Position numbers and translations under genes: made by a program
The notes under the pieces: model-generated
What the model was told of the DNA's origin: nothing
What the model saw: the letters and a program-made list of their open reading frames with translations, nothing else
Databases searched by the model: none
From: an uncultured Rikenellaceae bacterium
GTDB lineage: Bacteria; Bacteroidota; Bacteroidia; Bacteroidales; VadinHA17
DNA: 64,000 bases
Direction: 5' to 3'
NCBI GenBank assembly: GCA_964639725.1
Contig: CAZXFB010000001.1
Span: 180,400-244,399, forward strand
Part shown: positions 30,215 through 63,842 of the stretch, piece by piece
Layout of the letters: every line of letters begins with the position of its first letter
Position numbering within the stretch: the first letter of the stretch is position 1

Positions 30215-30853
30215 TTATAGTACCTGTTGGAAATATCTTTCACTCACTTTGTTAAAATATAGTTGAACGAGAGAGTTATCCCCTTTAATTGGTATAAAAA
30301 GAAGTTTTAATGAAAAACTTTCATCCAGAATAAAATAGTATGGAAGACCTTTATCGACTGCTGTAAATTCTATGTTATGCAGATTAAACACTTTAAAATC
30401 TATTTGATTCATTCTGACAAATTGTGACAAATCTCTTGGTGAATTGTAATTAGCTAAAATTATTATATTTTCCGATCCTATTTTTTCTGAGGCTTTTTTT
30501 AATAAAGCTAGTTGTTCGTCGACGCAAACATTGCAATTAAGAACTGAGTATTTGAATGTGAGCCTAGGTTTTTTATTTGCCAGCTGTTTCAAGAATATCC
30601 TGTTATTGTTTTCATCCGACAAAACGATGGTACTATCTATATTTTCAGACTGGGAATCAAATATTAATGAAAAATTCAGAAACATATTATCATGCTGATT
30701 ATTGAGATTCATAATGGAATCGTTGCATGCTTGAAGCAATAGTTTAAATTTTAAGTTTTCATTACTTTTCACACTTACAAAAAATAATAAACAAATATTG
30801 AGAAAGAACAGTAAAAAAAACACTAATTTTAAGAAAGTAGAAGGGATTTTCAT
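30215..30853 (-). CDS. Membrane-anchored CxxC thioredoxin-like protein (cassette 1)
   Basis: N-terminal TM, CNVC, LPYYFILD..LFIP; paralog of the other three cassette copies. Confidence 0.7.
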   Translation of the reverse strand: MKIPSTFLKLVFFLLFFLNICLLFFVSVKSNENLKFKLLLQACNDSIMNLNNQHDNMFLNFSLIFDSQSENIDSTIVLSDENNNRIFLKQLANKKPRLTFKYSVLNCNVCVDEQLALLKKASEKIGSENIIILANYNSPRDLSQFVRMNQIDFKVFNLHNIEFTAVDKGLPYYFILDESFSLKLLFIPIKGDNSLVQLYFNKVSERYFQQVL

Positions 30854-30866
30854 AATTAAAACATGG

Positions 30867-32084
30867 TTAATAGTTTCTCATTGAACAAATAAACAGAATT
30901 GGATTATCAGTGGGTTTAATATTGGCAAGTCTTTCAATAATTTTCTTTTCTGACATAGAAAGGCTTTTGGTATTCAATTCTTTGCATTTTTTGATTTGTT
31001 CAATGATATAATCTGGATCCATAAAAGTTACAAAGTTTTCATTATAACATGTATAAATCATCCATGGTGCAATACGTCCTGCAACATATGGATAAACCGT
31101 GGAAAGAAAAGATTTTTTAAGGCTCTTCGAATAATAAACATTATATATCCTCATTTTATAATCAAATCTAAAATAAATCCAATCATTTGTCTCATTAAAA
31201 CCCTCAATGGTATGGTAGTATAACTGGCCAACTCTCATTTTAAAATCTGCAAGCGAATTAAAACTATTAGGGACTGGTATATTTAGTGTCTTATTGCCAA
31301 AATCAATATTATACCTTGCTTTTATCCCTTCTTTATTAATTGAATAAATAATATTAGTACCGAAAACAGGATCTATTAGTGTCATGTTTTTGTAAGGTAT
31401 AAAGCGATGATTTTGAACACCTCCCTGAGTGCTATACTTTACTGGAAAATACTTATTTATGACCTTTCCCTTTTCCGTCATTTCATATAATGAACAAAAC
31501 TTATTATTAGGATTTTTATCAATTCCGAAACTACCTCCCCAAAGGTAGAAATTACCATTAGTAGCTACTGCGAATTCAAGTGGATTACAAAATATATTAT
31601 TGTCTGTTCGAGATAAAAAGTTAAATGAAATCTTGTCTTTAAAAGTACCATCATTATTATATTTGAGTATCTTTCTAAAATCCAAAATATAGATATTACC
31701 ATCTTTATCAATATCAAAATCCCTTAATTCAATGTATTCACCTGGACCTCTACCCTTTTTACCAATTTCATATAAATATTTGCCATTTATTTTAAATACG
31801 AATAGTTTTCCAATCTTATCTTTTATAAATATTTTATCTCCATAAAGTATTATCTTAAAAATTTGACTGATCAAACATTCATTTCTTGTTTCTATTGGAA
31901 TAATACTTAATTCTGAAAAAATAGAATCAATCTGAAGCAACTGTTTTGTATCACCTGTAATTTTAATATTTAGACAATTAGTATTTGTTATCATACTACT
32001 AACCTCCGATTCCACATTGCATGATGTAATGAAAATAATTAAGCTACTCAACATTAAGAATAGAAATCTGTTCATTTCATTCAT
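30867..32084 (-). CDS. 6-bladed beta-propeller lipoprotein (cassette 1)
   Basis: ITSC lipobox, IPIET, KGRGPGEY, C-terminal DNPILF. Confidence 0.85.
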   Translation of the reverse strand: MNEMNRFLFLMLSSLIIFITSCNVESEVSSMITNTNCLNIKITGDTKQLLQIDSIFSELSIIPIETRNECLISQIFKIILYGDKIFIKDKIGKLFVFKINGKYLYEIGKKGRGPGEYIELRDFDIDKDGNIYILDFRKILKYNNDGTFKDKISFNFLSRTDNNIFCNPLEFAVATNGNFYLWGGSFGIDKNPNNKFCSLYEMTEKGKVINKYFPVKYSTQGGVQNHRFIPYKNMTLIDPVFGTNIIYSINKEGIKARYNIDFGNKTLNIPVPNSFNSLADFKMRVGQLYYHTIEGFNETNDWIYFRFDYKMRIYNVYYSKSLKKSFLSTVYPYVAGRIAPWMIYTCYNENFVTFMDPDYIIEQIKKCKELNTKSLSMSEKKIIERLANIKPTDNPILFICSMRNY

Positions 32085-32158
32085 TTTAAATATAAACTAA
32101 CAAATAGAAAAGGACAATGTTGAGTCCTTTTCTATTATAACAAAATGTTGAAGGTTTA

Positions 32159-32434
32159 TCAACATACTCCATAACTGCATGGATAAAAAAAACAATCATA
32201 GTGATCCATAGTAATACAGGAATAATAAATCTGAGGTTGCCCGTAATGATCAATGCAACGACCACATACCCAGTGTGTGAGATCTTCTGGTGGGTCTTCA
32301 CCATCAGCAAGAGCACTTTTGGTGAGAGAAACTGAAATGTTCAGAGGGTCATTCTTGCCTAATACAACTTTAACATTCACAAAAACAACCCCCAGCATTA
32401 ATAAAGCTACGGTAATCATAATTTTCTTTTTCAT
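32159..32434 (-). CDS. Cys-rich secreted peptide precursor, NVEALA-like (cassette 1)
   Basis: MKKK plus hydrophobic segment, SALA|DGEDPP, 6-Cys core. Confidence 0.75.
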   Translation of the reverse strand: MKKKIMITVALLMLGVVFVNVKVVLGKNDPLNISVSLTKSALADGEDPPEDLTHWVCGRCIDHYGQPQIYYSCITMDHYDCFFYPCSYGVC

Positions 32435-32502: not shown

Positions 32503-32703
32503 TTATGTGGAAATTTGAGGAAAATTGGGGGTTTTTGGGACTCCAAAGGTTTCATAAATTATTATTAGATGGCATGGTTTAATTATTCCTGAAGGAATTA
32601 TGAGATCTTCCATTATTAACCATTTGTTAAGAGTTTTTCTGTCTATGCCATACTCATCGGCGATTTCCTGTCTGGTTTTGGCTCTAATTATCGGTGTCTC
32701 CAT
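32503..32703 (-). CDS. Small helix-turn-helix protein (DUF4248-like)
   Basis: KTRQEIADEYGIDRKTLNKWL..IYETFGVP; TAAATTTG (minus strand) at 32719-32726 favours ATG 32703 as the start. Confidence 0.6.
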   Translation of the reverse strand: METPIIRAKTRQEIADEYGIDRKTLNKWLIMEDLIIPSGIIKPCHLIIIYETFGVPKTPNFPQIST

Positions 32704-32963: not shown

Positions 32964-33490
32964 CGCCGCTTGCGGCGTAAAAGTAATATCTTTGTATGTA
33001 TGAGCGAAAGCGAATACATTCATAATCGCGTAATGTTTCGGTATTGTTATTTCATTTTGTATGTCCGGCCAAATATCGGAGAGTGGTAGTAAGTAATGAG
33101 GTTGATAAAACGTTGAAAGACACATGTCTTGAAATAGAAAAGAGATATGAACTTCACTTTCTTGAGATAGGGACGGACAACGATCATATCCATTTTTTGA
33201 TACAATCGATTCCAAGAATTAGTCCGACCCAAATTATATCGATTGTGAAAAGTATTACGGCCCGAGAGGTTTTCAGAAAAAATCCAAAAGTGAAAGAAAA
33301 GCTTTGGGAAGGAGAATTTTGGAGTGATGGGTATTTTGTTAACACTGTCAGTAAATTTGGAGATGAGACAAGTATTTCGAAATATGTTCGAGATCAAGGA
33401 CTTGAAAAAGAGTTCGTAGTTTTGCATCAAAGTAAACAGTTGGTTTTGGTTTAAGATACCCAGTTGTTTGTGGCTGGGAGCTTCATTTTT
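32964..33490 (+). mobile_element. tnpA: IS200/IS605-family element with frameshifted tnpA
   Basis: ATG 33000 (MSESEYIH) is out of frame with HFVCPAKYRR..DHIH..FWSDGYF..YVRDQ ending at 33454; left hairpin CGCCGC-TT-GCGGCG, right imperfect hairpin CCCAGT..GCTGGG. Confidence 0.85.
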
Positions 33491-33642: not shown

Positions 33643-33752
33643 ATAAAATAATATGATTGATATATAATCACTTAATATAATTTATTACTGATAACAAATA
33701 GTCATATAAACAAATTAAACAAAAGCCATTTTGTAAGTGGTACTGATATTTT

Positions 33753-33905
33753 TATAACTGGTCATTTTGGGACTTTAATTTCGTCAGAATTTTACAATAT
33801 TTTCTTCTGAATACCGGTATATTGTTGCCCAAAACGTCATTTTTTTATTTTTCTATTAAGTTTTTAACTTTTCAGGCATTTATCAGGTACGAGTAATTTG
33901 AAGTC
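33753..33905 (-). pseudogene. LytTR 3' remnant
   Basis: Minus strand reads NYSYLINA*KV and VLGNNIPVFRRKY; compare HYSYLINIKKV..IPISRRK in 46370-46771. Confidence 0.7.
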
Positions 33906-34008
33906 ATTTGCTGCTAGTCATTGACTTACACAATAATATTTTATCGAAGTTATTATGAGGTTTTAAATTAAACAATAGGGTATTTTTCCAAAGACTTAAA
34001 ATCCTTTG

Positions 34009-34077
34009 TAATTGGTCGAAATTTTTCATAACTGGTCATTATATTTCATAAATGGTCAAAATATTTATTAACTGGTC
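34009..34077 (-). promoter_or_regulatory. Four LytTR-type direct-repeat boxes, 20-bp period
   Basis: GACCA(G/T/A)TTA on the minus strand at 34069, 34049, 34029, 34009; two more boxes at 33755 and 33734. Confidence 0.75.
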
Positions 34078-34079
34078 AT

Positions 34080-38991: not shown

Positions 38992-39603
38992 CTAATTATT
39001 TCCAATAATGGTTCTTATAGTTTCAATATATTTATCTGTTAAATCAGGAAATAAACTGTTTGGTGAAAAGAAATAATCAATTTTTCTGTTTTTCGAAATA
39101 ATAAAATAATGTGGAATTTTTTCATTATCAGCAGGAATACCTAACTGTGGATTAGCAGGTATTAAATGATAAATTTTCTTCTTAAAGACTCTTTCCTTAA
39201 TATTCGGATTATATTTTGAAGTAATGATGATAATTTGATTATTTACTTCAAAGTCAGAAAAGGAAGACTTAATCTTATCAATTGCAAAACTAATACATGA
39301 TACGCAAACATCTTCAGAATAAGGCAGATATATCACTAAAGCGGGCAACTGTAAACTTTCTGGGATTATTTCGATTATTGAATCGTTCATGTCGGATGAA
39401 ATTAAAGCTCTGTTTACCTCTTTATCGTCGTTTGTGAATGTAGAAATTAAGTCTCTTTTAAGCATCCCATTTAATGATACAGTCGAATAATAATAGTCTT
39501 TCAGCTTCTTAAAATCTCTAAATTTGAGAAATAGAAATATATCAATGGAAAGAAGTAAAATTATTCCAAAAACAATGATGAATTTTACAAACTTTTTGCT
39601 CAT
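38992..39603 (-). CDS. Membrane-anchored CxxC thioredoxin-like protein (cassette 2)
   Basis: N-terminal TM, CVSC, IPHYFII..FFSP; start placed at MSKK. Confidence 0.65.
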   Translation of the reverse strand: MSKKFVKFIIVFGIILLLSIDIFLFLKFRDFKKLKDYYYSTVSLNGMLKRDLISTFTNDDKEVNRALISSDMNDSIIEIIPESLQLPALVIYLPYSEDVCVSCISFAIDKIKSSFSDFEVNNQIIIITSKYNPNIKERVFKKKIYHLIPANPQLGIPADNEKIPHYFIISKNRKIDYFFSPNSLFPDLTDKYIETIRTIIGNN

Positions 39604-39613: not shown

Positions 39614-40771
39614 TTATTTAAGTTTGTATTTAACAATTATTGGATTATCATCTTCCTTTATTCTCTTTAGTCTGTCATTAGAATTATTATCTAATAGATC
39701 TGTCGAAATTACATATTTTACATAACTTGGTTCACTAAAGAAATATAAATAATTATTATCCAATAAATTAGGCACAGGTAATTGTCCGATTGAATGTGTG
39801 AGATTATGCCCCAATTGTAATTCTTTAGTTGTTTTATTATATTTAACTACATGAATTTTTTTTTCAAATAAATAGAAAACTAATAGGAATTCATTATTTT
39901 CTTTAATATCAGTCACAAATGCGTACTTATTATCATTGTTGAGAATAAAAGACCTGTAAAATTCTTTTTGTCTTTTATTAGGCAATAAATCTAAAGTGAA
40001 ATTATGATCTCCAAAATTCAACTCAATATCCTTTTTGATATCTAATTTTAGTGGATCAACTAAATAAACAATATTAGAAGGGAATTTGTGAAAAAAATAA
40101 AGTTGATCATTAAAAAAATTGAATGGATTGCTAATTGTAGAGGAAAGATTTTTAATTTTTTTAGGTAAAGGAGCTGCTTTGTTTAATATTTTACCGCTAG
40201 TTAAAGAATAGAAGATTAAACTTCCTTTTCTATTTTGACTAAATTGAGAATAAAAAAGATATACATCTTCTGAGAGAGCTTTGAAGTTAACTAAGAAGGG
40301 TGAAATTTCAGGAGCTAAAGGAATAAAATTCTTATAGTTTCCATCAATATCATATAATTTAATTTTCCTGCTAGGTGCATCTAGTATCTCTAAGTTTTCG
40401 GTATAGGGATTTATATTGAAATCCATTAAATTTGAATATTGCCCTGGTCCACGGCCTTTCTGATTTAAAGTATTAAACAAAAACTCCCCTTCTTTATCGA
40501 ATACAAAAATGGCATGATTTATTCTATCATGAATATAAAATCTATCCTTATAGATTTCAACTTTGTGACAATTACCTAAAATGCTTTGTTTATTAGTTTG
40601 TAGGGGAATTAGTTCAATAGATGAGCAAAATGCATTTAATTCTAGATTTTTTGAATCCTGGGGATTTATTTCTAAAATAAGGCTGCCGTCTTGTTTGGAT
40701 TTTTTAGAACAACTAAAAAAAATCACTAACCCTAACAATGTTAGGAACATGTAAAAATGTTCTTTTTTCAT
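39614..40771 (-). CDS. 6-bladed beta-propeller lipoprotein (cassette 2)
   Basis: FFSC lipobox, IPLQT, KGRGPGQY, DDNPIIV. Confidence 0.85.
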   Translation of the reverse strand: MKKEHFYMFLTLLGLVIFFSCSKKSKQDGSLILEINPQDSKNLELNAFCSSIELIPLQTNKQSILGNCHKVEIYKDRFYIHDRINHAIFVFDKEGEFLFNTLNQKGRGPGQYSNLMDFNINPYTENLEILDAPSRKIKLYDIDGNYKNFIPLAPEISPFLVNFKALSEDVYLFYSQFSQNRKGSLIFYSLTSGKILNKAAPLPKKIKNLSSTISNPFNFFNDQLYFFHKFPSNIVYLVDPLKLDIKKDIELNFGDHNFTLDLLPNKRQKEFYRSFILNNDNKYAFVTDIKENNEFLLVFYLFEKKIHVVKYNKTTKELQLGHNLTHSIGQLPVPNLLDNNYLYFFSEPSYVKYVISTDLLDNNSNDRLKRIKEDDNPIIVKYKLK

Positions 40772-40901: not shown

Positions 40902-41213
40902 CTAACAGGGCATATGAAGAGCACAAAAATCACTCATATAGCCAGTCCAATCACACTCTGTCCACCAAAAGGGTCCAAAGGGAGTCCATTCCATAACACA
41001 ATCATCTTGAAAACATTGTCCCTCATTGCCTGACGAACATATTATTTCTACCGGAGGTAACTCAATTTGAGCATTTGCTTTCTGCATTAAAGAAGATAAC
41101 GTGAATGCAGTGGAGATACTTTTGCCATTTTCTTTATTAAAAATACTGACATTAGAAATAAGTACACCAACAAAAAAAGCACTTACTATCAAGTACAAAA
41201 TTCTTTTTTTCAT
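40902..41213 (-). CDS. Cys-rich secreted peptide precursor, NVEALA-like (cassette 2)
   Basis: MKKR plus TM, KANA|QIELPPVEIIC, 6-Cys core. Confidence 0.78.
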   Translation of the reverse strand: MKKRILYLIVSAFFVGVLISNVSIFNKENGKSISTAFTLSSLMQKANAQIELPPVEIICSSGNEGQCFQDDCVMEWTPFGPFWWTECDWTGYMSDFCALHMPC

Positions 41214-41316: not shown

Positions 41317-41763
41317 TCAAAACATTAATCCGGTTGCTTTAATATATAATCCAGATAAAATGATGCATAATCCGGGTAAAATAGTATACAATTTCATGTT
41401 AGTGCGTGGTGGTATTTCATCCTTTCCTTTTAACAACCGGTTAACTATTACTTTTCGGTCTTTTGCGACGGTTATTAATTGCTTATTTATCAATTCAATT
41501 TCACGGTTTTTAGAATCATAAATTAGGCGGAAGTCAAGGTTAACTAAGCATTTGGCATGGCAGCGTAAAAACCTATAACTTTTAAGTTTTTCTGCTATCT
41601 CTTTTAAACTGTGTGTAGCTATTATAATCTCATTTGAAATTAAAATAATATCCACCTTTCTGCCTTTCGATATGCAGTATACTATTTCATCTGGGTTTAT
41701 TAGCTGTATGTTTTGCCTAGTTTTAATAAATATTGACTTTATTTTGAAATTGTTCATATGCAT
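41317..41763 (-). CDS. Stand-alone LytTR DNA-binding protein
   Basis: INPDEIVYC, SLKEIAEKL..FLRCHAKCLVNL; no receiver domain. Confidence 0.85.
   Translation of the reverse strand: MHMNNFKIKSIFIKTRQNIQLINPDEIVYCISKGRKVDIILISNEIIIATHSLKEIAEKLKSYRFLRCHAKCLVNLDFRLIYDSKNREIELINKQLITVAKDRKVIVNRLLKGKDEIPPRTNMKLYTILPGLCIILSGLYIKATGLMF
41326..41376 (-). promoter_or_regulatory. Three direct-repeat boxes, 21-bp period
   Basis: TAATCC(G/A)G on the plus strand at 41326, 41347, 41368. Confidence 0.65.
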
Positions 41764-47534: not shown

Positions 47535-47640
47535 TCAAAATATTAAGGGCTTCATATTAATTCATTCAGGGAAAGTTTAAGTATTTACCATACAGTTTTC
47601 TTTTCAGAGATTTATGAGAAGCCCTTATAATTATTCAATT

Positions 47641-48769: not shown

Positions 48770-49393
48770 ATGTTGCGAAATATTACAACAATAATTTTAT
48801 CAGTATTTCTTTTGTTTCTGGCTGTAAATTGTTATTTTCTGAAGAGAAAAGTTACGCATTTTAGTTTTAATAATAAAGCTATATCAGAAGAAGTTGATTA
48901 TCTTAATGAAGATATCTCACAAATACTTGAAAATGAAAAATTGATGACTAAATCGGAGTATTCAGTTATTGACCCGTTAACACAACTTATTACAATCAGG
49001 AATGATACCGTTCTTTTAAAAGAGCTGGTTCGAAAAAAAGGTAAACTAATTCTCTATTACAGCGAGCAATATTGTGACATATGTTATAAAAACCTTCTTC
49101 GACACATAAACGATTATATAACAAATACAGGTACCAAAAATATTATAATACTTGCAGAATATGAAAACCCAAGAAACTTTAATTATTTTATAAATCATAA
49201 TGAAATTAGAGCAAAAATATATTTAACTCACAAGGGTATTATTTTCCCATCCCAGAAAGGGAATCAACCATTTTTTTTTATGCTTGATAATTCTTTCCTG
49301 GCTAAATATGTAAATGTCCCAAATAAGAAGTATCTTAAAAATATTGATTTGTATTTACGCACTGTTGATGAATATATAACCAAAAAAAATTAA
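48770..49393 (+). CDS. Membrane-anchored CxxC thioredoxin-like protein (cassette 3)
   Basis: N-terminal TM, CDIC, QPFFFMLD..VP. Confidence 0.7.
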   Translation: MLRNITTIILSVFLLFLAVNCYFLKRKVTHFSFNNKAISEEVDYLNEDISQILENEKLMTKSEYSVIDPLTQLITIRNDTVLLKELVRKKGKLILYYSEQYCDICYKNLLRHINDYITNTGTKNIIILAEYENPRNFNYFINHNEIRAKIYLTHKGIIFPSQKGNQPFFFMLDNSFLAKYVNVPNKKYLKNIDLYLRTVDEYITKKN

Positions 49394-53206: not shown

Positions 53207-54310
53207 ATGAAAAAATACTATAATATGAATATCCTAAAAACCCTCCCATTTCATTTAATTCTCCTTTGCCTTGTGATAAGTTCCTGCAAACAGAAAGGTA
53301 GCGAAACCAAAACTGCTGCTGAAGATAAAAAGGAGTCAGTTGCTGTAAATGAAGATAAACAGAAGGTATCTGTCATGGTACTTCGTTATGGTGAATTTAA
53401 TAAGGAGATCATCAGCAATGGTAAACTGATAGCATTAAAAAAGGCAGATCTTAAATTCCGCACCACCGAGAATGTTGCCACTGTTTATGTAAAAAATGGT
53501 GACAGGGTTATGTATGGTCAGGTTATTGCAAAACTCGAAAACTTTACCCTGTCCAATACATTAAAACAGAGCCGGAACCAATTCGATAGAGCAAGGATAG
53601 ATTTTCAGGATGTCCTTATAAGTCAGGGTTATAATATCAAAGACACATTAACTATTCCTGAAGGTATTATGAAAACTTCACGGATAAAAAGTGGTATTGA
53701 TAAAGCAGAGTCCGACCTTGAGATGGCCGAATACAACCTTAGGGCCTCAGTATTGAAATCTCCGATTTCCGGGATTGTAGCCAACCTTTTCTCAAAGGAA
53801 GATAATTTATCAAATCAGTCTGAAAAGTTCTGTACCATAATAGACGACAGTCGCTTCGAAGCCGAATTTCCAGTTCTCGAAAGCGAGCTGGCTTCGGTAA
53901 AAATAGGACAAACAGTTAGAATCATACCTTACTCTTACAACAATGTTGTGGTAAAAGGTGAAGTAATAAAAATAAATCCTGTTGTGGACCAGAATGGTAT
54001 GGTAAAGGTTGATGCTGTTTGTAACAATGTAGATCACAAACTATTTGAAGGAATGAACATCAAAATCGTGCTGGAAGAAAAAGTCCCGCATAAGCTGGTT
54101 ATCCCAAAACAAGCCGTTGTTCTTCGCAGCGAAAGACAGGTGGTATTCACGTACAAAGCCGGTAAAGCTATGTGGGTATATGTCAAAACCGGACTGGAAA
54201 ACATATCATCGTTTGTTGTAACTGAAGGATTACAGGAGGGTGATTCGGTTATTTATGAAGGGAATCTTAATCTGGCGCATGAGGCTGGTGTGGTTATTGA
54301 TAGTAATTAA
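53207..54310 (+). CDS. RND periplasmic adaptor (MFP) lipoprotein
   Basis: ISSC lipobox, VKNGDRV..GQVIA, LKSPISGIV, IPKQAVV. Confidence 0.9.
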   Translation: MKKYYNMNILKTLPFHLILLCLVISSCKQKGSETKTAAEDKKESVAVNEDKQKVSVMVLRYGEFNKEIISNGKLIALKKADLKFRTTENVATVYVKNGDRVMYGQVIAKLENFTLSNTLKQSRNQFDRARIDFQDVLISQGYNIKDTLTIPEGIMKTSRIKSGIDKAESDLEMAEYNLRASVLKSPISGIVANLFSKEDNLSNQSEKFCTIIDDSRFEAEFPVLESELASVKIGQTVRIIPYSYNNVVVKGEVIKINPVVDQNGMVKVDAVCNNVDHKLFEGMNIKIVLEEKVPHKLVIPKQAVVLRSERQVVFTYKAGKAMWVYVKTGLENISSFVVTEGLQEGDSVIYEGNLNLAHEAGVVIDSN

Positions 54311-54618: not shown

Positions 54619-57600
54619 ATGATTAAGTTCTTAATAACCCGCCCGATAGCAGTAATAATGGTCTTCATCGCAGCCGTTGTTCTGGGTATTGTAGCATACC
54701 ACACACTGCCTGTTTCTCTCATGCCCGACATTCCTATTCCTGTGGTAACGGTAAACATAACCTATAAAAACAGTTCAGCACGTGAGCTGGAGAATGCAGT
54801 CGTAAAGCCAGTGCGGGCTCAGCTTATGCAGGTGGCACATCTTAGTGAAATAAAGAGCGAAACCCGCGACGGACAGGCAGTCATTAACCTGAGCTTTGAC
54901 TACGGTACAAATGTTGACTATGCATTTATTGAGGTAAACGAGAAAATTGACGGCGCCATGAACTCCTTTCCCCGCGATATGGAGCGTCCTCGGGTTATAA
55001 AGGCAAGCGCCACTGATATACCTGTTTTCTACCTGAATTTATCGTTAAAAGATGCAGATTCACTTCGTTCCGATAATTCCGACGAAGCAGATGACCGGTT
55101 TATCGAACTGAGCGAATTTGCCGAATCTGTCATCCGTAAACGGATAGAACAGTTACCCGAAGTGGCCCTGGTTGACATCAGTGGCACAGTAAGTCCTCAG
55201 CTTACCATTGAGCCAGACATGCAGAAAATGCAGAGTCTTAACTTTTCGCTTTCACAGCTGGAAAATGCTTTAACGCAGAACAATGTGAATGCAGGCAGCA
55301 TGATGGTACGCGACGGGCATTACCAGTATAATATCCGCTTTACATCTGTGTTACGCAATAAAGAAGATGTAGAAAAGATATTCATTAAAGCTTCCGGGAA
55401 AATATTCCAGCTTAAAGATATTGCGCAGGTTAGCATTGATCCTCAGAAACGTACCGGCATGTTTGCAGCCAACAGCAAACCGGCAATAACAATGGCAGTA
55501 ATAAAACAGGCAAATGCCAGGCTTGCCGATATGAAAGATAAGATCAGGCAAATGGTCAACCGGTTTGAAAAGGACTATCCGGGTATTCATTTCGAAGCTA
55601 CCCAGGACCAGACACAGCTTCTCGATTACTCCATTTCAAACCTGAAGCAAAACCTGGGTCAGGGATTGTTGCTGGTAATATTAGTGGTTTTCATCTTCAT
55701 GAAAGATCTGAAGCTGCCTTTACTGATCGGCTTGTCATTAATGGTTTCCGTTATCATTTCGCTGCTGTTTTTCAGTATGATGCATCTCTCCATCAACATC
55801 ATTTCTCTTGCCGGTCTTATTCTTGCTGTTGGAAATATGATGGATAATTCCATTGTGGTAACAGATAATATAAGTCAGTACCGCGAACGAAACTTCACGG
55901 TTGATGAAGCCTGTGTTAAAGGTACAGGTGAAGTGATCATTCCCCAGCTTAGCTCCATGCTGGTTAACGTGGCTGTATTTCTGCCACTGATTTTCCTTAG
56001 CGGGATTGCAGGGGCTCTTATGTATGATGAAGCAATTTCGGTTTCTATCGGACTCTCGGTTTCATATATTGTCGGTATCACCTTTATGCCGGTTATTTAC
56101 CGGTTGGCATACAAGCGTGTCTACAAAGCCGAAAACAAGATCCTGCAGGTTAAAGAAAAATTGTTTAATGTTCTGGGAACCGGCTTTAAAAAAATCTTCG
56201 ACCTCGATAAAGTTTACACATCGGGACTGGACTTTACTTTCAAACACAGGAAACTGAATATTATAATGTACCTGATGATGCTCCCTATCGGGTTTATTGT
56301 GCTTATGGCAATACGTAAAGAAAAGATGCCTGCTCTCACACAGACAGAAACGATCATTACGGTTGACTGGAACGAGAACATAAACGCAGGCGAGAACAAG
56401 CTCCGTGTTTCCCGTTTACTTAAGACTATTGAACCTGAAACATTGCAAAGTAATTCTTTTATCGGCCGTCAGCAGTTCCTTCTTAACCGCGACAAGGAAA
56501 TGAGCCCATCCGAAGCGCGGATATATATTAAAACAGATATTCCTGAGAACGTCAACCGGATTGAGGATAAGGTGAAAAAGTTTGTTACTGAGCAGTATGG
56601 CAGAGCGAGGTTCGGATTTGAAGCTCCCACTTCCATTTTTGAGAAACTGTTTACCAGCAGCGAACCTCCCCTGGTTGCAGAACTTTCGATGATTAGCACC
56701 AATATTGAACCCGACATATCCGCTCTTTTAAAGACCTGCGGAGAATTGAATGGTGACAGAGTGCTAATGTCAGCAAACAAAATACCTCTTCAGGAGCATA
56801 TAGTACTTACTGTTGATATGGAGAAGCTATTGTTATACAATGTCTCCTACGATGCTTTGCTTAAGGAGCTTAGAACCGGTTTCAAGGAAAACAGTATTGG
56901 GATGTTACGCTCTTTTCAACGATTTATCCCTATTGTAATTACAGGTAAAGAAATGCTTGTAACCGAAATAATAGGTACCAGGGGGATCACCAATAACGAA
57001 AACGTAGTTATCCCGTTAAGTGCCCTTGTAACAATCTCTAAAGGTCAGGATCTGAAGACGATCACAGCGGGAAAAGAAGGGGAATTTATACCACTCCTGT
57101 TTTCACCCGAAGGAAATCAAAAAGACCGGTTTGTTAAACAAATCAAAAATTCGGTGCAAAAATCCGGGGTGTTCGATGTCCGTTTTTCAGGTTCTGTTTT
57201 TTCCAACCTGAAGCTACTGAAGGAAATAGGCATTTTGCTGATTATTTCAGTACTGCTGTTGTATTTTATCCTTGCCGCACAGTTTGAATCACTTGTCCAG
57301 CCACTCCTGGTGCTTATGGAAATACCCATTGATATTGCTGCAGCATTACTTGTCCTGTATATTGCAGGTCAGTCACTTAACCTTATGTCGGCAATGGGCA
57401 TGGTAATTATGTGCGGGATCATCATCACCGATTCAATCCTGAAACTCGATGTTATTAACCAGCTGCGAAAAGAGGGGTATCCATTGCTTGAGGCTATCAG
57501 GACAGGAGGTCATCGCAGATTAAGAGCTATAATAATGACAAGCTTAACCAGTATCCTTGCCATGTTGCCTCTGTTATTCACCAACGATCTTGGAAGCGAA

Positions 57601-57720
57601 CTGCAAAAACCATTTTCCTATGCACTTATAGGAGGAATGGTGGTTGGAACAGTGGTAAGCTTGTTTCTCGTGCCGTTAGTGTATTGGTACATTTATAGGA
57701 ATGAAGAAATTAAGAAATAG
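54619..57720 (+). CDS. RND efflux permease (AcrB/CzcA family) 2
   Basis: ITRPIAV, MMDNSIVV, AQFESL.QP, RLRAIIMTSLT. Confidence 0.92.
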   Translation: MIKFLITRPIAVIMVFIAAVVLGIVAYHTLPVSLMPDIPIPVVTVNITYKNSSARELENAVVKPVRAQLMQVAHLSEIKSETRDGQAVINLSFDYGTNVDYAFIEVNEKIDGAMNSFPRDMERPRVIKASATDIPVFYLNLSLKDADSLRSDNSDEADDRFIELSEFAESVIRKRIEQLPEVALVDISGTVSPQLTIEPDMQKMQSLNFSLSQLENALTQNNVNAGSMMVRDGHYQYNIRFTSVLRNKEDVEKIFIKASGKIFQLKDIAQVSIDPQKRTGMFAANSKPAITMAVIKQANARLADMKDKIRQMVNRFEKDYPGIHFEATQDQTQLLDYSISNLKQNLGQGLLLVILVVFIFMKDLKLPLLIGLSLMVSVIISLLFFSMMHLSINIISLAGLILAVGNMMDNSIVVTDNISQYRERNFTVDEACVKGTGEVIIPQLSSMLVNVAVFLPLIFLSGIAGALMYDEAISVSIGLSVSYIVGITFMPVIYRLAYKRVYKAENKILQVKEKLFNVLGTGFKKIFDLDKVYTSGLDFTFKHRKLNIIMYLMMLPIGFIVLMAIRKEKMPALTQTETIITVDWNENINAGENKLRVSRLLKTIEPETLQSNSFIGRQQFLLNRDKEMSPSEARIYIKTDIPENVNRIEDKVKKFVTEQYGRARFGFEAPTSIFEKLFTSSEPPLVAELSMISTNIEPDISALLKTCGELNGDRVLMSANKIPLQEHIVLTVDMEKLLLYNVSYDALLKELRTGFKENSIGMLRSFQRFIPIVITGKEMLVTEIIGTRGITNNENVVIPLSALVTISKGQDLKTITAGKEGEFIPLLFSPEGNQKDRFVKQIKNSVQKSGVFDVRFSGSVFSNLKLLKEIGILLIISVLLLYFILAAQFESLVQPLLVLMEIPIDIAAALLVLYIAGQSLNLMSAMGMVIMCGIIITDSILKLDVINQLRKEGYPLLEAIRTGGHRRLRAIIMTSLTSILAMLPLLFTNDLGSELQKPFSYALIGGMVVGTVVSLFLVPLVYWYIYRNEEIKK

Positions 57721-57814: not shown

Positions 57815-59293
57815 ATGAAGCTAAATAGAATAATTTTACCAGTGCTGCTTTTAGTAACAGTTTCCGTTTCCGGACAAACAACTATGTCCCTTACAGATGC
57901 GATAAAATCTGCCACCGACAGTTCACTTGCTGCCTTTAAAGCACAAAACCTTTATTTGTCTGGCTATTGGGAATATCGTACTTACACAGCCCAGAAAAAA
58001 CCTGTTCTATCACTTAATGCCAACCTGTTCGATTACAACAGAGCATTGACCAAGGTCTATAATTCGGTGCTTAATATCAACGAATATATTGAACAACAGG
58101 ATATTTATTCCTATGCCAATGCCTCAGTCAGGCAGAACCTTCCTTTCAGTGGAGGGACTCTCTATTTTGATTCAGAACTCAGCCGGCTGCAAAATTTTGG
58201 ACAAAACAGGTATACCCAGTTTTCGACAGTACCCTTAAGGGTTGGACTAAGCCAGCCTGTTTACGGTTATAATCCATTTAAATGGCAAAAGAAAATAGCT
58301 CCGTTAAAATACGAGAAAGCAAAAAAAAGCTATCTGCAATCGGTGGAATTGATCTCCTCCAGAATGGTTGATTATTTTTTCGATCTGTTAGTTGCCAGGA
58401 TAAGAGTTTCCATGTCTGTTACAAATGTCGCCAATTCTGATACGTTGTATAGGATCGGTCAAAAACGTCTTGAAATTGCTTCACTTTCACTTGCTGAGGT
58501 TCTCACACTGAAAGTTGACGCTCTTAATGCACGTAACGATTTGGCAGAAGCGAATAAGCAACTAAAAAATGCACAATATGTTTTTAATTCATATCTGCGG
58601 TTTGATGAAAATAAAACAGTAGTACTTTCAATACCTGAAAATCTGCCCTCATACCAGATAAATTATAACGAAGTACTGCAGATGGCTATGTTAAACAATC
58701 CTGACCTCCTGGGATATCAGCAACAGATGCTTGAATCGGAAAGTGAACTTGAAAGGACAAAGCGGCAAAATCTTTTTAATGCATCCCTCAATGCCAGTTT
58801 TGGATTGAACCAGCAGAATCCGTTGCTCTCAGCAGCATACCGGGATCCGATGGACCAGCAGCGGGCATCAATTGCGTTAACTGTTCCTATAATAGATTGG
58901 GGTCAGGGCCGCGGAAAAGTGAATATGGCACAAAAGAACTATGAAGTAACCCGGCTGACGGTTGAACAGGCAAATGTTGATTTTCATCAGCAGGTAATAA
59001 TGGCTGTAACTAATTTTAACATGCAGCTTGATATTGTAAAAAGCGCAAGTGAAACAAAAAGTGCGGCACAGCAGGCTTATGAAATGAACAAACAACGTTT
59101 TGTGATTGGAAAAGCAGATGTCAACAGCCTTGGTCTTGCTCTTAACCGGCAGGATCAGGCTAATATCAATTATCTAAATGCACTGCGTTTATACTGGAAA
59201 TATTATTATAATATCAGGCAGCTCACTTTATACGATTTTGAGAACAGAAAGGCTCTTATACAGAATTTCGATGAAATATTTGGGGTAAGGTAG
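57815..59293 (+). CDS. TolC-family outer-membrane efflux protein
   Basis: Signal peptide, helical repeats, PIIDWG; follows RND and MFP genes. Confidence 0.88.
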   Translation: MKLNRIILPVLLLVTVSVSGQTTMSLTDAIKSATDSSLAAFKAQNLYLSGYWEYRTYTAQKKPVLSLNANLFDYNRALTKVYNSVLNINEYIEQQDIYSYANASVRQNLPFSGGTLYFDSELSRLQNFGQNRYTQFSTVPLRVGLSQPVYGYNPFKWQKKIAPLKYEKAKKSYLQSVELISSRMVDYFFDLLVARIRVSMSVTNVANSDTLYRIGQKRLEIASLSLAEVLTLKVDALNARNDLAEANKQLKNAQYVFNSYLRFDENKTVVLSIPENLPSYQINYNEVLQMAMLNNPDLLGYQQQMLESESELERTKRQNLFNASLNASFGLNQQNPLLSAAYRDPMDQQRASIALTVPIIDWGQGRGKVNMAQKNYEVTRLTVEQANVDFHQQVIMAVTNFNMQLDIVKSASETKSAAQQAYEMNKQRFVIGKADVNSLGLALNRQDQANINYLNALRLYWKYYYNIRQLTLYDFENRKALIQNFDEIFGVR

Positions 59294-59439
59294 AATGATG
59301 GTCATTGGTAGTCATTCAATGGTCATTCTAAAGTAAAACAAGTGTATGACAATCGAACGAAGCAAATGACACCGAAGGCTGAATGACTGCGAAGCCAAAT
59401 AACGTGAGAAACGCGAATGACAATTGAATGATATGGACC

Positions 59440-60020
59440 TTATTCCGATTTCAAGAAGAAAAGCCAACAATATCTTTAGTATTTTATCAGATTTGGGCAT
59501 TCAGGATTTCAGAAATCGTGACCAAGTGTAAAATATTTCGACCACTTATAAGAAATATTGACCAGTTATGAAAAATTTCAACCACTTACAAAGAATTTTC
59601 ATGATTCGGAAAAATACACCATAGTTTATTACAGAAATGCTTTTTAATTTTAAAAGTATTTTATAATGAAAAAGAATATGGGATTTATTTTTGAATATGA
59701 CAAAAGCAAATGATAATAAATGTCAGCAAACCAAATGACAACTGAATGACGGCGAAACCGAATGATGCACGAAGTGTAAATGACACATAGTAAATAACAA
59801 TATAATTATTAACCTACGGAAATAAAAAGGCCGGAAACATTTAAAGGGTGACTTTTTGGATCTGCCCCGTGCTCTGAGCCCTGCGCCCTGCGCCCTGCGC
59901 CCTGAGCTATTTGCTTCCCGCCCGGAACCTTTAAATAAAAGAAAGGAGTTAAGGCATAAAAATTGTTGAAAATCAATAATATGAAAATGGTTTTGCCAGC
60001 CAGAGAAGTTGAAGATGATA
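59440..60020 (+). repeat. Diverged duplicate of 46680-47210 (LytTR 3' end, boxes, leader region)
   Basis: TATTCCGATTTCAAGAAGAAAAGCCAA.. shared; boxes at 59521, 59541, 59561, 59581. Confidence 0.9.
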
Positions 60021-60052
60021 AATTTAATAATAAACACTTAAAATTATTGAAA

Positions 60053-60349
60053 ATGAAAAAGAAAGAAATCTTAATAATCAGTTCATTAGTTGGACTGTTT
60101 ATTTTCATTAATCTCTCGATTGGCTTAAAGATTACTCAATCAGGTCAGAAAACAGAGTTGATTTCTATTATTAAATCTGCATTTGCAGATGATGAAAACC
60201 CATCATATTGTGAAGTATGTGGCACAGGTGATTGCGGATTAGTGATGGGCACTTATTCATGTACCGATAAAATTAATACATATAAGCTTTGCGGAGTCGT
60301 CTGCTACACAAGTTCTTGTAATGTCTCAGAACAAACCACTTGTCCTTGA
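60053..60349 (+). CDS. Cys-rich secreted peptide precursor (cassette 4)
   Basis: MKKKE plus TM, SAFA|DDENP, 8-Cys core. Confidence 0.78.
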   Translation: MKKKEILIISSLVGLFIFINLSIGLKITQSGQKTELISIIKSAFADDENPSYCEVCGTGDCGLVMGTYSCTDKINTYKLCGVVCYTSSCNVSEQTTCP

Positions 60350-60559: not shown

Positions 60560-61756
60560 ATGATGAAAAAGGTATTAGGATTTGTTTTATTAGTTATTAC
60601 ATTATTTGTTTCTTCGTGCGAAAGCAAAAAAGAAGTATATAAATTGAAGGAGATTCCTGTCTTGTTTGAAGGTGAAGGATTTAGGGAAAAACTATCTAAG
60701 TTTGTATTATCTACTTCATATATTCAACTTGAGACAAGATCCGATTTTCTTATTGGGGCAATACAAAAATTAATAATACTTGATAAGATATATTGCGTTC
60801 AATCCAAAAAATTAAACGTATGTGATCTTAAAGGTAATGCATTATTTGAGATTAATCACTATGGGGTAAAGGGTCCTGAAGGATATATAGAACTATCTGC
60901 ATTACAGGTTGATACAATAGATAATGTTATTGAAATATGGGATCGAATGACTAGAAAAATTATTCTTTTTGACAGTAATAATGGTAGATTTATCAATACT
61001 AAAAGATTTAATGTTAATGCATATAATTTTGTTCATGATCAGGAAAAGAATTACTATTTCTATTCCGGTTATGCTCCAAATCCTTTATATATGAAAAAAG
61101 ATGAAGTATATCAGTTAATTAAATTTAATAAAGACGGCAAATTTCTTAATAAATTTCTAAAGGAGGAAAATATAAATAAAAAAATAATTGTTTTCAATAA
61201 TAATATTCTTTATTTATATAAAGGCGATATTTATTTAAATCCTCCTGCAAATAATTTTGTTTATATTATAAAGGAAGATAAATTGTCTGAAATATTTAAG
61301 ATTGATTTTGGCAAATATGAGTTAAAAGATAACTTTTTTGAAGGAAAGAAACAAGTGAACATAACTGGATTAGAAGAAACTAACTTTGCTTGGAATTGGG
61401 GTTCTTTTCGTGAATTTAGATATGGATATTCTTATTGCTATTTTAAAGATAAAAAAATATTTAGAGGCTTTATTTCAAAAACTTCTAAAAAAAATTTTGT
61501 TTCCTTGCAATTTGAGAATGATTTTGACGGTGGTTACCCAATAGTTGTTGATTGTATTCAGGATGATATATTTTTTACCTACTATGAAGCTTCAATAATG
61601 AAAGACTATTACTTGGATATTAAGAAAAAACTATCAGGTGAACAATGGAACAAGTTTAAAGCAGATCATCCTAAATTTAGCAAAATATGTGAAAAGCTAT
61701 CAAATTCAGATATCGATAATCCTGTAATTGTGGTTATGGTACCCAAAGAATTTTAA
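60560..61756 (+). CDS. 6-bladed beta-propeller lipoprotein (cassette 4)
   Basis: VSSC lipobox, IQLET, KGPEGY, DNPVIV. Confidence 0.85.
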   Translation: MMKKVLGFVLLVITLFVSSCESKKEVYKLKEIPVLFEGEGFREKLSKFVLSTSYIQLETRSDFLIGAIQKLIILDKIYCVQSKKLNVCDLKGNALFEINHYGVKGPEGYIELSALQVDTIDNVIEIWDRMTRKIILFDSNNGRFINTKRFNVNAYNFVHDQEKNYYFYSGYAPNPLYMKKDEVYQLIKFNKDGKFLNKFLKEENINKKIIVFNNNILYLYKGDIYLNPPANNFVYIIKEDKLSEIFKIDFGKYELKDNFFEGKKQVNITGLEETNFAWNWGSFREFRYGYSYCYFKDKKIFRGFISKTSKKNFVSLQFENDFDGGYPIVVDCIQDDIFFTYYEASIMKDYYLDIKKKLSGEQWNKFKADHPKFSKICEKLSNSDIDNPVIVVMVPKEF

Positions 61757-61760
61757 TCAC

Positions 61761-62393
61761 ATGAAGAAGAAATCTTTAATAGTCTTTGTAATTCTTCTCT
61801 TGGTAGCTATTGATTTAGTTTTTATTATACTTTGTACAAGCTTAAATAAGAATCTGCATTTAGTTGAGTATAAGTATAAATTGTTTTTAAAACAAGATTC
61901 ACTTAAGGCGAAAATGTATATTGAGAATATTTTGCAATATACCATTAATACCAGAGAAAAAGTTAAAGAGAACCTTGAACTTATTTCTGAAAATGGACAA
62001 AAAACCACTCTTCAAAGATTGGTCATTAAACGACCGGTAATTTTTTTCAAGTATTTTCAAGAAAGCTGTAATTCCTGTGTTGAGAGTGAATTCAGAATTA
62101 TGCGAGAAATATTTTCAACCGAAGAGTTGCAGAATATAATTGTCTTAACTACAGATAAGGATCCAATTAATATAAGTCAGTTTAAAGACATGAATAGGAT
62201 CAAAAACCCTGTCTACATAATAAAGAATACTTATTCAGATTTGCCTGTTGATAAGCTTGGGATACCTTATATGTTTGTTTTGAATGATTCATTATATATT
62301 GAGAATTTATTTATTCCTCTAAAACTTATATCAGCTCCATCAGTTGCGTATTATAAATATATAAAGTGTCAGTATTTTGAATGTTGTGAATAA
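61761..62393 (+). CDS. Membrane-anchored CxxC thioredoxin-like protein (cassette 4)
   Basis: N-terminal TM, CNSC, IPYMFVLN..LFIP. Confidence 0.7.
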   Translation: MKKKSLIVFVILLLVAIDLVFIILCTSLNKNLHLVEYKYKLFLKQDSLKAKMYIENILQYTINTREKVKENLELISENGQKTTLQRLVIKRPVIFFKYFQESCNSCVESEFRIMREIFSTEELQNIIVLTTDKDPINISQFKDMNRIKNPVYIIKNTYSDLPVDKLGIPYMFVLNDSLYIENLFIPLKLISAPSVAYYKYIKCQYFECCE

Positions 62394-62666
62394 TACATGA
62401 TTATTGAATATTATCTACAAAAATATTTGGGAGTGTAAATGAATTGGTAGCTATATTAGGTACCCCAATCGGGTTGGAGCCGGAAATAGAGCTCAAATGC
62501 CAGTTGGTTATCATAACAACAATGGATCTAAAACTGAAAAAATATGTAAACAGCGTGTATGGTGCGGAATATTCAAGGAATATAACAAAACAGTCAGAAG
62601 CAGGAAGACAGAAGTTTTTGTTCCTGCTTCGGTCTTCCAACTTAATGATAAAAACTATCTGGAACA

Positions 62667-63842
62667 ATGAAATACCACCAAAAAGCAATACTTATTTTCC
62701 TGTTCCTCAGCAGTTTTGTCTTAATATTTGTTGGAGTAGCCTGGCTTTCCATTGGTTTGCTTGCAACTGCTTTATTGTATTGGATGACTATCTCAGATAA
62801 AAAAATCATCGCACGATTCAGAAAAATGAAGTTGATATCGTACCCGTTGTATGTTTTAGCTATAATCCTTTTTTCTATCGGAATTCGAATATTTGTTATT
62901 GAGATCTTCGCTATACCTTCTGATTCTATGAAAGACACTCTTGTTTCGGGGGATATAATTTTGATGAACAAGCTTGCCTATGGTCCAAAGATGCCAGGTT
63001 CCCCATTTGAAATTCCATGGGTAAATATTGTTTTTTACCTCAATAAAGAATGCAGGTCAAAAATTGACTCCTTATGGTGGGAGTATAAAAGACTCCATGG
63101 GTTTTCAAAAATAAGACATAGCGAGGTCATTGTTTTTATTTCCCCGAAAAACTCTGAGGAAATATTAATAAAACGTTGTATGGGTTTACCTGGTGATACT
63201 ATACTTATCAGTGATGAGAAAGTTTATGCGAACCATAAAGAAATACCAGAGGAAGGTACTGTAAAGCTTAGATCCCGTATTTTGTTCAATAATTATGCCC
63301 TGGCAAACACACTTTTTGACAGTTCGGGTCTGGAGGAGTATAACAATAAATCCGTTTTGAAGAATTATTTCAGTACAAGTATTAATAATAATCAGAGGCA
63401 GATACTATTAACATATGATTGCATTGATTCCATTGTCATTGAAAAGAACAGACCCGATTCCGCTTATAACACTTTTCCACACAGCAGCCATTTCCGGTGG
63501 CCCATTGATGACTTCGGTCCACTGTTAATACCCGCAAAAGGAATGACAATAAAGCTGAATGAAGAGAATTATGAAATTTATAACGATATCATAAGGCATT
63601 TTGAAATGATGGAAATATCAACATCAGGAGGAGAATATTTTCTTAAAGGTGTTAAAGCGTCAAGCTTTACTTTTAAAAATAATTATTATTTCATGCTTGG
63701 TGATAACCGGCACGATTCAAATGATTCACGTTATTGGGGTTTTGTACCTGAAAATTACATAATCGGTAAAGCTGTTCTGGTAATTCTCTCAAATGGTGAG
63801 GATGGTTTTAGATGGAACAGGTTGTTTAGAATAATCAAATAG
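62667..63842 (+). CDS. Signal peptidase I (LepB family)
   Basis: IPSDSMKDTL..GD, IKRCMGLPGD, GDNRHDSNDSRYWGFVP. Confidence 0.92.
   Translation: MKYHQKAILIFLFLSSFVLIFVGVAWLSIGLLATALLYWMTISDKKIIARFRKMKLISYPLYVLAIILFSIGIRIFVIEIFAIPSDSMKDTLVSGDIILMNKLAYGPKMPGSPFEIPWVNIVFYLNKECRSKIDSLWWEYKRLHGFSKIRHSEVIVFISPKNSEEILIKRCMGLPGDTILISDEKVYANHKEIPEEGTVKLRSRILFNNYALANTLFDSSGLEEYNNKSVLKNYFSTSINNNQRQILLTYDCIDSIVIEKNRPDSAYNTFPHSSHFRWPIDDFGPLLIPAKGMTIKLNEENYEIYNDIIRHFEMMEISTSGGEYFLKGVKASSFTFKNNYYFMLGDNRHDSNDSRYWGFVPENYIIGKAVLVILSNGEDGFRWNRLFRIIK

Follow-up and report, generated by a model that had tools for sequence, protein, structure and literature searches.

Diverged cassettes of a Cys-rich peptide precursor, a propeller lipoprotein and a ResA-like redoxin suggest an exported disulfide-peptide system in a Rikenellaceae genome

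A 64,000-nucleotide stretch of contig CAZXFB010000001.1 from an uncultured Rikenellaceae bacterium (hereafter the window; G000:C1:180400–244399 in our numbering, G000 being this genome) carries four copies of a three-gene cassette encoding, in order, a Cys-rich peptide precursor, a six-bladed β-propeller lipoprotein and a CxxC protein of thioredoxin type (redoxin), with a resistance–nodulation–division (RND) pump and a second signal peptidase I alongside. The cassette is likely a swappable unit, supplying one exported acidic disulfide peptide of ~50 residues and a propeller predicted to bind it. We judge it an even call that these are polymorphic peptides made for export, each of them to be caught in the periplasm by its cognate propeller and passed on to the pump, a path that would serve export as well as immunity. 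A sequence-only reading of the window had listed the four triplets and called them highly diverged; all four are present, and paralogues share only 18–32% identity. A fifth lies 2.4 kb past the window end (G000:C1:246769–249530), after a transglutaminase-like lipoprotein gene, and across the five copies pairwise identity is 18–28% for peptide cores, 24–30% for propellers and 21–32% for redoxins. Recent tandem duplication of whole cassettes is ruled out, the cassette genes having no DNA match to one another at E 1e-4. The GC content of the cassettes (0.275–0.287) lies below that of the pump (0.401) and of the genome (0.376), which is 4.99 Mb in length and 98.9% complete; the metagenome runs that best hold it are labelled freshwater or lake.

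Cassettes 1 and 2 occupy the minus strand. Cassette 1 comprises the 91-residue peptide 1 precursor (32159..32434), propeller 1 (30867..32084) and redoxin 1 (30215..30853); cassette 2 comprises the 103-residue peptide 2 precursor (40902..41213), propeller 2 (39614..40771) and redoxin 2 (38992..39603). On the plus strand, cassette 3 (peptide 3 precursor, 96 residues, 47244..47534; propeller 3, 47614..48768; redoxin 3, 48770..49393) directly precedes the pump, formed by RND permease subunit 1 (49407..52679), a periplasmic adaptor or membrane fusion protein (MFP; 53207..54310, above the TIGR01730 cut-off), permease subunit 2 (54619..57720) and a TolC-family outer-membrane channel (57815..59293, PF02321). 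Cassette 4 follows (peptide 4 precursor, 98 residues, 60053..60349; propeller 4, 60560..61756; redoxin 4, 61761..62393), then the second signal peptidase I (S26 family; 62667..63842). Upstream of cassette 3 lies a plus-strand gene for a membrane protein with an O-antigen-ligase-like Wzy_C domain and a C-terminal TPR region (44227..46326; hereafter Wzy_C-TPR). The two permeases, MFP, TolC, Wzy_C-TPR and peptidase had been placed together in the sequence-only reading, and all prove to be present and co-oriented with cassettes 3 and 4.

Conservation of the triplet was assessed in a single sample of 300 genomes from the order, in which permease 1 has an orthologue in 59, DUF5128 (the propeller family, PF17170; threshold E ≤ 1e-8) a match in 59 and the redoxin a match in 25. 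Seven of the redoxin matches (G314 twice, G215, G112, G289, G160 and G198) are weak and generic (E 4e-11 or weaker) and have no labelled cassette, so 25 overstates the number of cassette genomes. The DNA examined covers 61 pump loci, from all 59 pump genomes, and 32 redoxin sites. Of 44 redoxin genes labelled there, five of them from this genome, 39 adjoin a DUF5128 propeller; of the remaining five, one is a duplicate, two lie at edges, one has a TolB-like propeller as its neighbour and one is separated from a propeller by 365 bp. A secreted Cys peptide accompanies 36 of the 39 propeller–redoxin pairs, drawn from 21 sources in three gene orders (a count that includes five hand-corrected peptide calls); the arrangement is thus a conserved one, as the sequence-only reading required. 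Searches for related loci returned 6 loci and 1 locus. A Phocaeicola vulgatus plasmid (NZ_CP096966.1) carries an NVEALA peptide, a propeller, a CxxC protein and a second, orphan propeller, and Chondrinema (NZ_CP111046.1) carries peptides, propellers, a redoxin, lepB, MFP, RND, TolC and RND. In Bacteroides thetaiotaomicron, the part of PMC10434189 available to us lists BT0662 (O-antigen ligase family), BT0663 (hypothetical), BT0664 (propeller), BT0667 (lepB) and BT0669 (adaptor), which are the same kinds of gene by annotation name, as opposed to sequence comparison. The same kinds recur in the Pfam neighbourhoods of NVEALA (PF14055), DUF5128, TolB_like (PF15869) and DUF1573, the window peptides themselves falling below the NVEALA cut-off.

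Partners within a cassette diverge in step. Tree distances of propellers and redoxins correlate (rho 0.62, n = 39), a value reached by none of 2,000 free shuffles and by 2 of 2,000 shuffles within genomes, which bears out the expected congruence of their trees. Core similarity tracks both propeller distance (rho 0.10, n = 36; 10 of 1,000 free and 2 of 1,000 within-genome shuffles) and redoxin distance (7 and 3 of 1,000, respectively) weakly, though beyond the shuffles. In six of the nine closest core pairs the partners rank first or second. Cassette 1 has a mutual nearest neighbour in G042 (L068), a genome from another family (propeller 42%, redoxin 29% identity), and the two share a six-Cys frame; cassette 2 and one of G011 (L175) are likewise mutual nearest (31% and 28%), the G011 core being of the same type behind a short leader. 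Precursor P0171 is 72% identical to peptide 1 across its first half and has an unrelated core. By these comparisons peptide, propeller and redoxin travel as typed units that swap leaders. Peptide searches gave few relatives: one match for peptide 2 (P0168, 94% identical) and four for the peptide 1 profile, two being its input sequences.

All four window precursors (91–103 residues) have a hydrophobic, signal-like N terminus, a linker, an AxA site at residues ~41–48 and a Cys-rich tail. Cleavage there would leave predicted cores of 48 residues with 6 Cys (peptide 1, ALA at 41–43), 55 with 6 (peptide 2, ANA at 46–48), 52 with 8 (peptide 3, AIA at 42–44) and 53 with 8 (peptide 4, AFA at 43–45). 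The sequence-only reading had called these peptides NVEALA-like. The layout agrees, with A-x-A-x-x-E kept in all four and the same arrangement in 18 long-leader precursors; none reaches the Pfam cut-off, peptide 1 scoring 16.5 against 27 bits and peptides 2–4 giving no match to PF14055, and the peptide of a related cassette (L153) passes the model at 45.6 bits. Across 36 precursors, half have the long leader (cut at 40–48) and half an ordinary short signal, whose cut sites are rough; the Cys count is even in 29 of the 36 predicted cores. Predicted hairpins lie 3' of peptide genes 1–4 (−14.6, −11.6, −5.6 and −18.5 kcal/mol, respectively, values that stand without a shuffle control). Two loci show further variety: in Chondrinema (L197:8514–10940) there are three long-leader peptide genes, two of them identical, with a Cys directly after an AAA site, and in G283 (L155:5726–6605) a propeller is followed by a row of three small open reading frames, two for Sec-type Cys peptides and one with a different leader.

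The second signal peptidase goes with the long leader. It scores 128.6 bits against the TIGR02227 cut-off of 47, its Ser/Lys dyad motifs are intact, and the housekeeping lepB lies on another contig. With leader classes of 28 genomes set by hand (automatic classes erred in G163 and G248), a signal peptidase lying apart from the housekeeping lepB cluster is clear in 15 of 19 long-leader genomes (two without, two unclear) versus 2 of 9 short-leader ones; the corresponding test at the level of single loci, which used automatic classes containing errors, is not significant (7/10 versus 2/8, p 0.15). Wzy_C-TPR, whose Wzy_C domain scores 52.5 against a cut-off of 31.7 bits, follows the same division, being found in 13 of the 19 long-leader and none of the nine short-leader genomes; the search profile was built mostly from long-leader loci, so that the 0/9 is the informative part, and three of the nine belong to one genus. 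(A single-protein search at E 1e-25 missed known copies and was replaced by this alignment search.) The Wzy_C-TPR and peptidase genes adjoin in several genomes, and in G125 (L018:11685–14387, contig G125:C76) the two are fused in one 901-residue protein. The co-occurrence with leader type and this fusion together mark Wzy_C-TPR as a partner of the peptidase instead of a bystander, and we infer that the two act jointly on the long leader, where Wzy_C-TPR may add a glycan or just present the substrate. This comparative evidence supports, for peptides with long leaders, the earlier proposal that the signal peptidase would release the peptide.

The propellers are 385–430 residues long, have a lipobox-like Cys and all score far above the DUF5128 cut-off (105–148 versus 22.9 bits; E 6e-43 for propeller 1). 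A structure model of propeller 1 (predicted local distance difference test, pLDDT, 86) is closest to an uncharacterized Bacteroides fragilis protein (PDB code 4RAA, TM-score 0.73), followed by NHL-type binding domains. Net negative charge after the lipoprotein Cys is described as a surface signal in the portion of PMC5080379 that we draw on. Two acidic residues after this Cys are found in 10 of 67 propellers (those with a parsable lipobox) versus 7 of 7 SusD-like controls; as most propellers lack the acidic export signal, a periplasmic orientation is likely for them. A role of the RND pump as a flippase of surface propellers was considered and is ruled out on the same ground; surface lipoprotein export is assigned to a lipopolysaccharide translocon in the accessible parts of two 2026 preprints. 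The predicted complex of propeller 1 with the predicted peptide 1 core scored 0.02, which, standing without control complexes, we count neither way.

Redoxins 1–4 (203–212 residues; CNVC, CVSC, CDIC and CNSC) reach no Pfam or NCBIfam cut-off. In a model from 135 sequences (pLDDT 94) a single helix of 63 residues leads into a predicted thioredoxin fold, with ResA structures as best matches, and the family has the features of TlpA/ResA proteins (thioredoxin fold, CxxC, conserved Pro and N-terminal membrane anchor). Both CxxC cysteines are invariant in all 135 aligned proteins and Pro 171 is kept in at least 90%; the dipeptide between the cysteines comes in 28 kinds among 39 proteins. The redoxin identity given to these genes from sequence is thus matched by a predicted ResA-like fold.

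The pump tracks the propellers. A DUF5128 match occurs in 41 of the 59 pump genomes versus 18 of 241 others, and a propeller within the DNA covered at 32 of 61 pump loci (25 of 33 where at least 25 kb is available); in 10 of 50 pump loci a propeller gene directly precedes the MFP gene, and propeller arrays at pump loci reach ten. Permease 1 has the transmembrane helix 4 (TM4) Asp and a TM10 motif without a charged residue; in permease 2, D409, D938 and K942 are invariant in 59 of 59 aligned orthologues, a TM10 Asp plus a Lys four residues on, which differs from AcrB. This charge pattern is as would be expected of an unequal, active heteromer. Escherichia coli MdtBC is such a heteromeric RND pump, with two unequal permeases of which one has the fuller charge set. 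Neither permease reaches the cut-off of the CusA/CzcA heavy-metal family (TIGR00914; 118 and 293 versus 701 bits). A four-helix-bundle gene (23S rRNA IVP family; 52600–53055) sits inside the pump operon, as in that of Chondrinema.

Export of the peptide by RND–TolC, as first proposed, fares less well than the presence of the genes, since the pump tracks the propeller more than the Sec-type peptide. The two permeases and the adaptor have their nearest paralogues in this genome (38%, 48% and 34% identity; other full-length RND proteins ~25% or less) on contig C61, in a second, probably fragmented cluster (G000:C61:585–18395, C103 and C146). There every double-glycine Cys peptide has a DUF5128 propeller behind it, and the cluster also holds a peptidase-containing ATP-binding cassette (ABC) transporter (PCAT), HlyD, a VKOR-containing protein, a glycosyltransferase and the paralogous RND pair. 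Four of the five other propeller copies in this genome directly follow double-glycine peptides, as do propellers in G278, where the layout is the same (peptides, propellers, PCAT, HlyD and RND pair) with TolC in addition. Because these paralogues adjoin peptides with their own PCAT and HlyD, the RND pair is not just the exporter of the cassette peptides; the peptides there already having an exporter, the pump beside them likely has another task, for instance clearance of the periplasm. One C61 peptide gene (near 2000–2210) has an in-frame stop. At five further loci (L055–L059; G035, G284 and G172) the same RND pair is surrounded by as many as ten propellers, a TPR protein and genes of radical-SAM-like and glycosyltransferase type, and an automated script called no peptide there.

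Taken together these comparisons suggest the following route. The LytTR proteins described below would switch on the cassettes through 9-bp direct repeats. The precursor would cross the inner membrane by Sec and remain anchored through its long leader, while the cassette's own ResA-like protein, on its predicted long helical stalk, would set or reshuffle the disulfides; the second signal peptidase with Wzy_C-TPR would then cut the distal AxA site, ~20 residues past the hydrophobic stretch. In the periplasm the propeller would catch its own peptide and pass it to the two-subunit RND–MFP–TolC pump, so that for the producer propeller and pump would mean both export and self-protection, and in cells with only orphan propellers and the pump the same pair would protect against the peptides of neighbours. 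Features of polymorphic toxin–immunity systems are present (conserved leader, variable core, adjacent predicted partner and orphan partners), and the peptide–propeller pair probably serves as weapon and immunity among Bacteroidota. A bolder extension, which we hold to be less likely than not, is a phylum-wide peptide warfare in which one generic two-subunit RND–TolC pump would take its specificity from interchangeable propellers, each catching one disulfide peptide; the same path would expel the peptides of rivals as well as export the cell's own, and the many orphans would form an acquired immunity library. NisI/NisFEG immunity, a lipoprotein plus a pump, is a comparable arrangement. STb, a Sec-exported disulfide peptide whose export depends on TolC, is a precedent for moving a folded disulfide peptide from periplasm to TolC, through an ABC-type pump and without a cognate binding lipoprotein.

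Several observations weigh against this reading. Antibacterial activity and target are putative. The predicted cores are net acidic in 33 of 36 cases (−5 to −9 in the window), unlike membrane-lytic cationic bacteriocins. Re-oxidation of the redoxin is a difficulty, with DsbB not found in the genome, DsbD present and the only VKOR in the double-glycine cluster, and ResA-type proteins are usually reductases. Long-leader peptides occur in two genomes (G147 and G163) with a single signal peptidase. The core–propeller correlation is small, near propellers are missing from three of the nine closest core pairs (ranks 5, 6 and 9), and operon linkage alone could give much of the congruence, which therefore does not show binding. 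As for the pump, the compared genomes are related and not independent, 18 of the 59 pump genomes have no DUF5128 match, the DNA covered at 29 of 61 pump loci lacks a propeller (8 of 33 with at least 25 kb), and G272 has six redoxin cassettes and no pump match among the two candidates scored per genome, the number scored throughout. Orphans also outnumber peptide-linked propellers: in a sample of 20 high-scoring DUF5128 loci not picked for cassettes (omitting two with a cut upstream side and loci already analysed), 33 of 35 full propellers have no secreted Cys peptide directly upstream and two have one, which is also compatible with a job independent of peptides. These orphans, which speak for the proposed route as well, occur singly or in arrays and in diverse surroundings, a few of them next to what read as toxin–antitoxin-like genes, and on the propeller tree orphan and peptide-linked copies are intermixed (37 changes versus 36–49, mean 42.6, in shuffles; the labels are noisy). 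Finally, the accessible part of PMC6671954 describes bacteroidetocin loci that work without an immunity gene.

The regulatory genes bear on the strongest rival. A stand-alone LytTR gene or remnant and periodic boxes had been placed upstream of every cassette, which proves true in part. Intact LytTR genes (PF04397) precede cassettes 2 (41317..41763, minus strand) and 3 (46370..46771, plus strand); before cassette 4 there is a remnant of 30 codons (59439–59528), 80% identical to the end of the second intact gene, and before cassette 1 no trace was found. Boxes lie before cassettes 1, 3 and 4, with none found before 2 or 5: two minus-strand groups within 33733..34078 (four boxes from 34076 to 34016 at period 20, and two at 33762 and 33741), three at period 20 in 46781..46829 (plus strand), and four at 59521, 59541, 59561 and 59581, which with the remnant span 59439..59590 (plus strand). 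Arrays of at least three ACCAnT boxes with a period of ~20 bp are confined to these three sites across the 4.99-Mb genome. The boxes of cassette 3 fall inside a 405-bp block that fronts both cassettes 3 and 4 and is 90% identical between them, the proteins behind it being ~24% identical; the two cassettes thus share a front end and carry different cargo. At cassette 1 the boxes are separated from the peptide gene by a plus-strand open reading frame (33044..33454), presumably an IS200-like transposase from the HUH-type motif in its translation, and by a minus-strand 66-residue gene (32503..32703) directly before peptide 1, which we take from its sequence to be helix–turn–helix (HTH)-like and which has no family match above cut-off. 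Of its two further copies, one lies directly before the peptide gene of cassette 5 (G000:C1:246470–246640, 55% identical) and the other at C40:1476–1676, close to a fragment that also occurs at the start of C61.

LytTR proteins may bind these boxes, by analogy with LytTR Regulatory Systems (LRS), in which, in the part of PMC6193735 consulted, 9-bp repeats such as ACCACTTAT-11 bp-GCCACTTAT control bacteriocin genes. Shared with the systems described there are the stand-alone LytTR protein and the 9-bp repeats, of ACCACTTA(T/C/A) type with 11–13-bp spacers. Here, in contrast, the boxes lie downstream of lytTR and before the peptide gene, three to four repeats replace two, and no membrane inhibitor gene lies directly downstream of lytTR, peptide genes following both intact copies; lacking that inhibitor, the locus is LRS-like and not an LRS. 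The cassettes could encode a strain-specific pheromone with the propeller as receptor, its signal reaching LytTR through a membrane partner (Wzy_C-TPR, the DUF2975 protein or a TPR-regulator) as in LRS. We regard this as unlikely, though the best placed of the alternatives: boxes of this type occur only at these cassettes, the cores are acidic, Wzy_C-TPR adjoins LytTR here and in another locus (L013), pairs are typed and orphan propellers could be eavesdropping receptors, yet the propeller has no output domain, the window locus contains no kinase, Wzy_C-TPR goes with the peptidase and with leader type, and LytTR occurs at 1 of 61 pump loci in the DNA covered and so is not a fixed part.

Somewhat less probable still is that propellers serve generally as accessories of the envelope or pump (perhaps binding substrates for the RND pair in defence against small molecules), with the peptide staying inside the cell as a resident subunit, plug or inhibitor of its propeller. 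The predominance of orphans (33 of 35), the tracking of propellers by the pump and the position of propeller genes directly before MFP genes would all suit such a role; propellers that follow double-glycine peptides with PCAT and HlyD imply released peptides, however, a dedicated peptidase accompanies the long leader, and hairpins lie 3' of peptide genes 1, 2 and 4. We give little credence to glycosylated or cross-linked surface or matrix peptides, onto which Wzy_C-TPR would transfer glycan and which a transglutaminase-like lipoprotein would link to the envelope. Wzy_C and transglutaminase-like genes do recur at long-leader loci and several cores begin with Ser/Gly-rich stretches, but short-leader cassettes manage without Wzy_C-TPR (0/9), and G077 and G157, with Ser/Gly-rich cores, have no Wzy_C-TPR match. 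The window end holds the start of the transglutaminase-like lipoprotein gene (644 residues; 63916..64000, plus strand; full gene G000:C1:244315–246249), which has Cys and His motifs and whose relatives recur, often paired, at long-leader loci. Least probable is metal handling, in which reduced peptides, kept so by the ResA-like protein through DsbD, would bind periplasmic metal and leave by the RND pump: acidic Cys-rich cores, a ResA-like fold and the presence of DsbD with DsbB not found in this genome would fit, but cores, Cys spacing and CxxC dipeptides vary freely, a chelator needs no one-to-one typed partners and the permeases score far below the heavy-metal cut-off.

Returning to exported peptides with cognate propellers, in predicted gene content the locus resembles a disulfide-peptide bacteriocin operon, yet departs from bacteroidetocins in leader and exporter. 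In the sections of PMC6671954 available, bacteroidetocin activity needs a dedicated thiol oxidoreductase, the hosts being said to have no general disulfide machinery; small Cys-containing Bacteroidota peptides with a dedicated enzyme of this kind, here a predicted one, are common to both. Bacteroidetocins as described there use a double-glycine leader and PCAT and have no immunity gene, whereas here the leader is Sec-type with a distal AxA site, its own signal peptidase and RND–TolC, and a lipoprotein, predicted to be cognate, follows each peptide; no PCAT was found among the 30 proteins scanned across 27634–63842. Class II microcin and bacteriocin pairs share the peptide gene directly before its cognate partner, typed pairs and orphan partners; validated microcin immunity proteins, in the excerpted text of PMC12219008, are small inner-membrane proteins of ≤216 residues, in contrast to the 385–430-residue propeller lipoproteins here. 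The word 'propeller' is absent from the main text of PMC10352776, PMC12219008, PMC6671954 and bioRxiv 2024.04.29.590671 (the preprint's supplements might list such genes). In a literature search that covered few subscription papers, we found no functional description for NVEALA, DUF5128, DUF4934, DUF4221, BF3164 or the B. thetaiotaomicron tags, and nothing relevant on combinations of propeller, bacteriocin and orphan immunity.

If correct, the proposal would give a function to three large and so far unexplained Bacteroidota families, namely NVEALA peptides, DUF5128 and TolB-like propellers, and a redoxin family whose profile matches 2,069 clusters at E ≤ 1e-10, as well as to the RND pair that 59 of the 300 sampled genomes of the order carry. 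It would suggest that folded peptides can leave by Sec and RND combined and that an O-antigen-ligase-like protein partners a signal peptidase, and the cores would form a large pool of unstudied disulfide peptides. Since B. thetaiotaomicron (by annotation) and the P. vulgatus plasmid hold counterparts, gut strains that are tractable could be used to test the proposal.

Whether the peptides are expressed had been posed as a check, and RNA-library contigs cover all four peptide genes, a hint of transcription and not proof, as such contigs carry no strand or level and may include DNA. Contigs from three metatranscriptome runs of one study match the peptide genes without differing letters: run X6 gives 32116–32583, 40693–41273, 47006–47588 and 59804–60414; run X7 gives 32043–32476, 40565–41250, 59823–60455 and two pieces over peptide 3; and run X10 covers peptide 1 and, in part, peptides 2 and 3. 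The runs were chosen through cassette 3, so only peptides 1, 2 and 4 are independent of the choice. Two DNA runs of other studies show no cassette swap across 45001–64000.

Other genes of the window lie around cassettes 2 and 3. A 285-residue probable lipoprotein of no family (41989..42846, minus strand), spanned together with the adjoining LytTR gene by one RNA-library contig, ends in a 10-Cys tail with a CxWTG motif resembling that of peptide 2, and is possibly a lipoprotein-borne peptide; Atlas searches with it and with peptide 2 gave leads all below 0.9. A plus-strand pair encoding a DUF2975 membrane protein and a Cro/C1 HTH protein (43194–44146) directly precedes Wzy_C-TPR, and a short MutS-like ATPase gene (37359–38744) directly follows redoxin 2.

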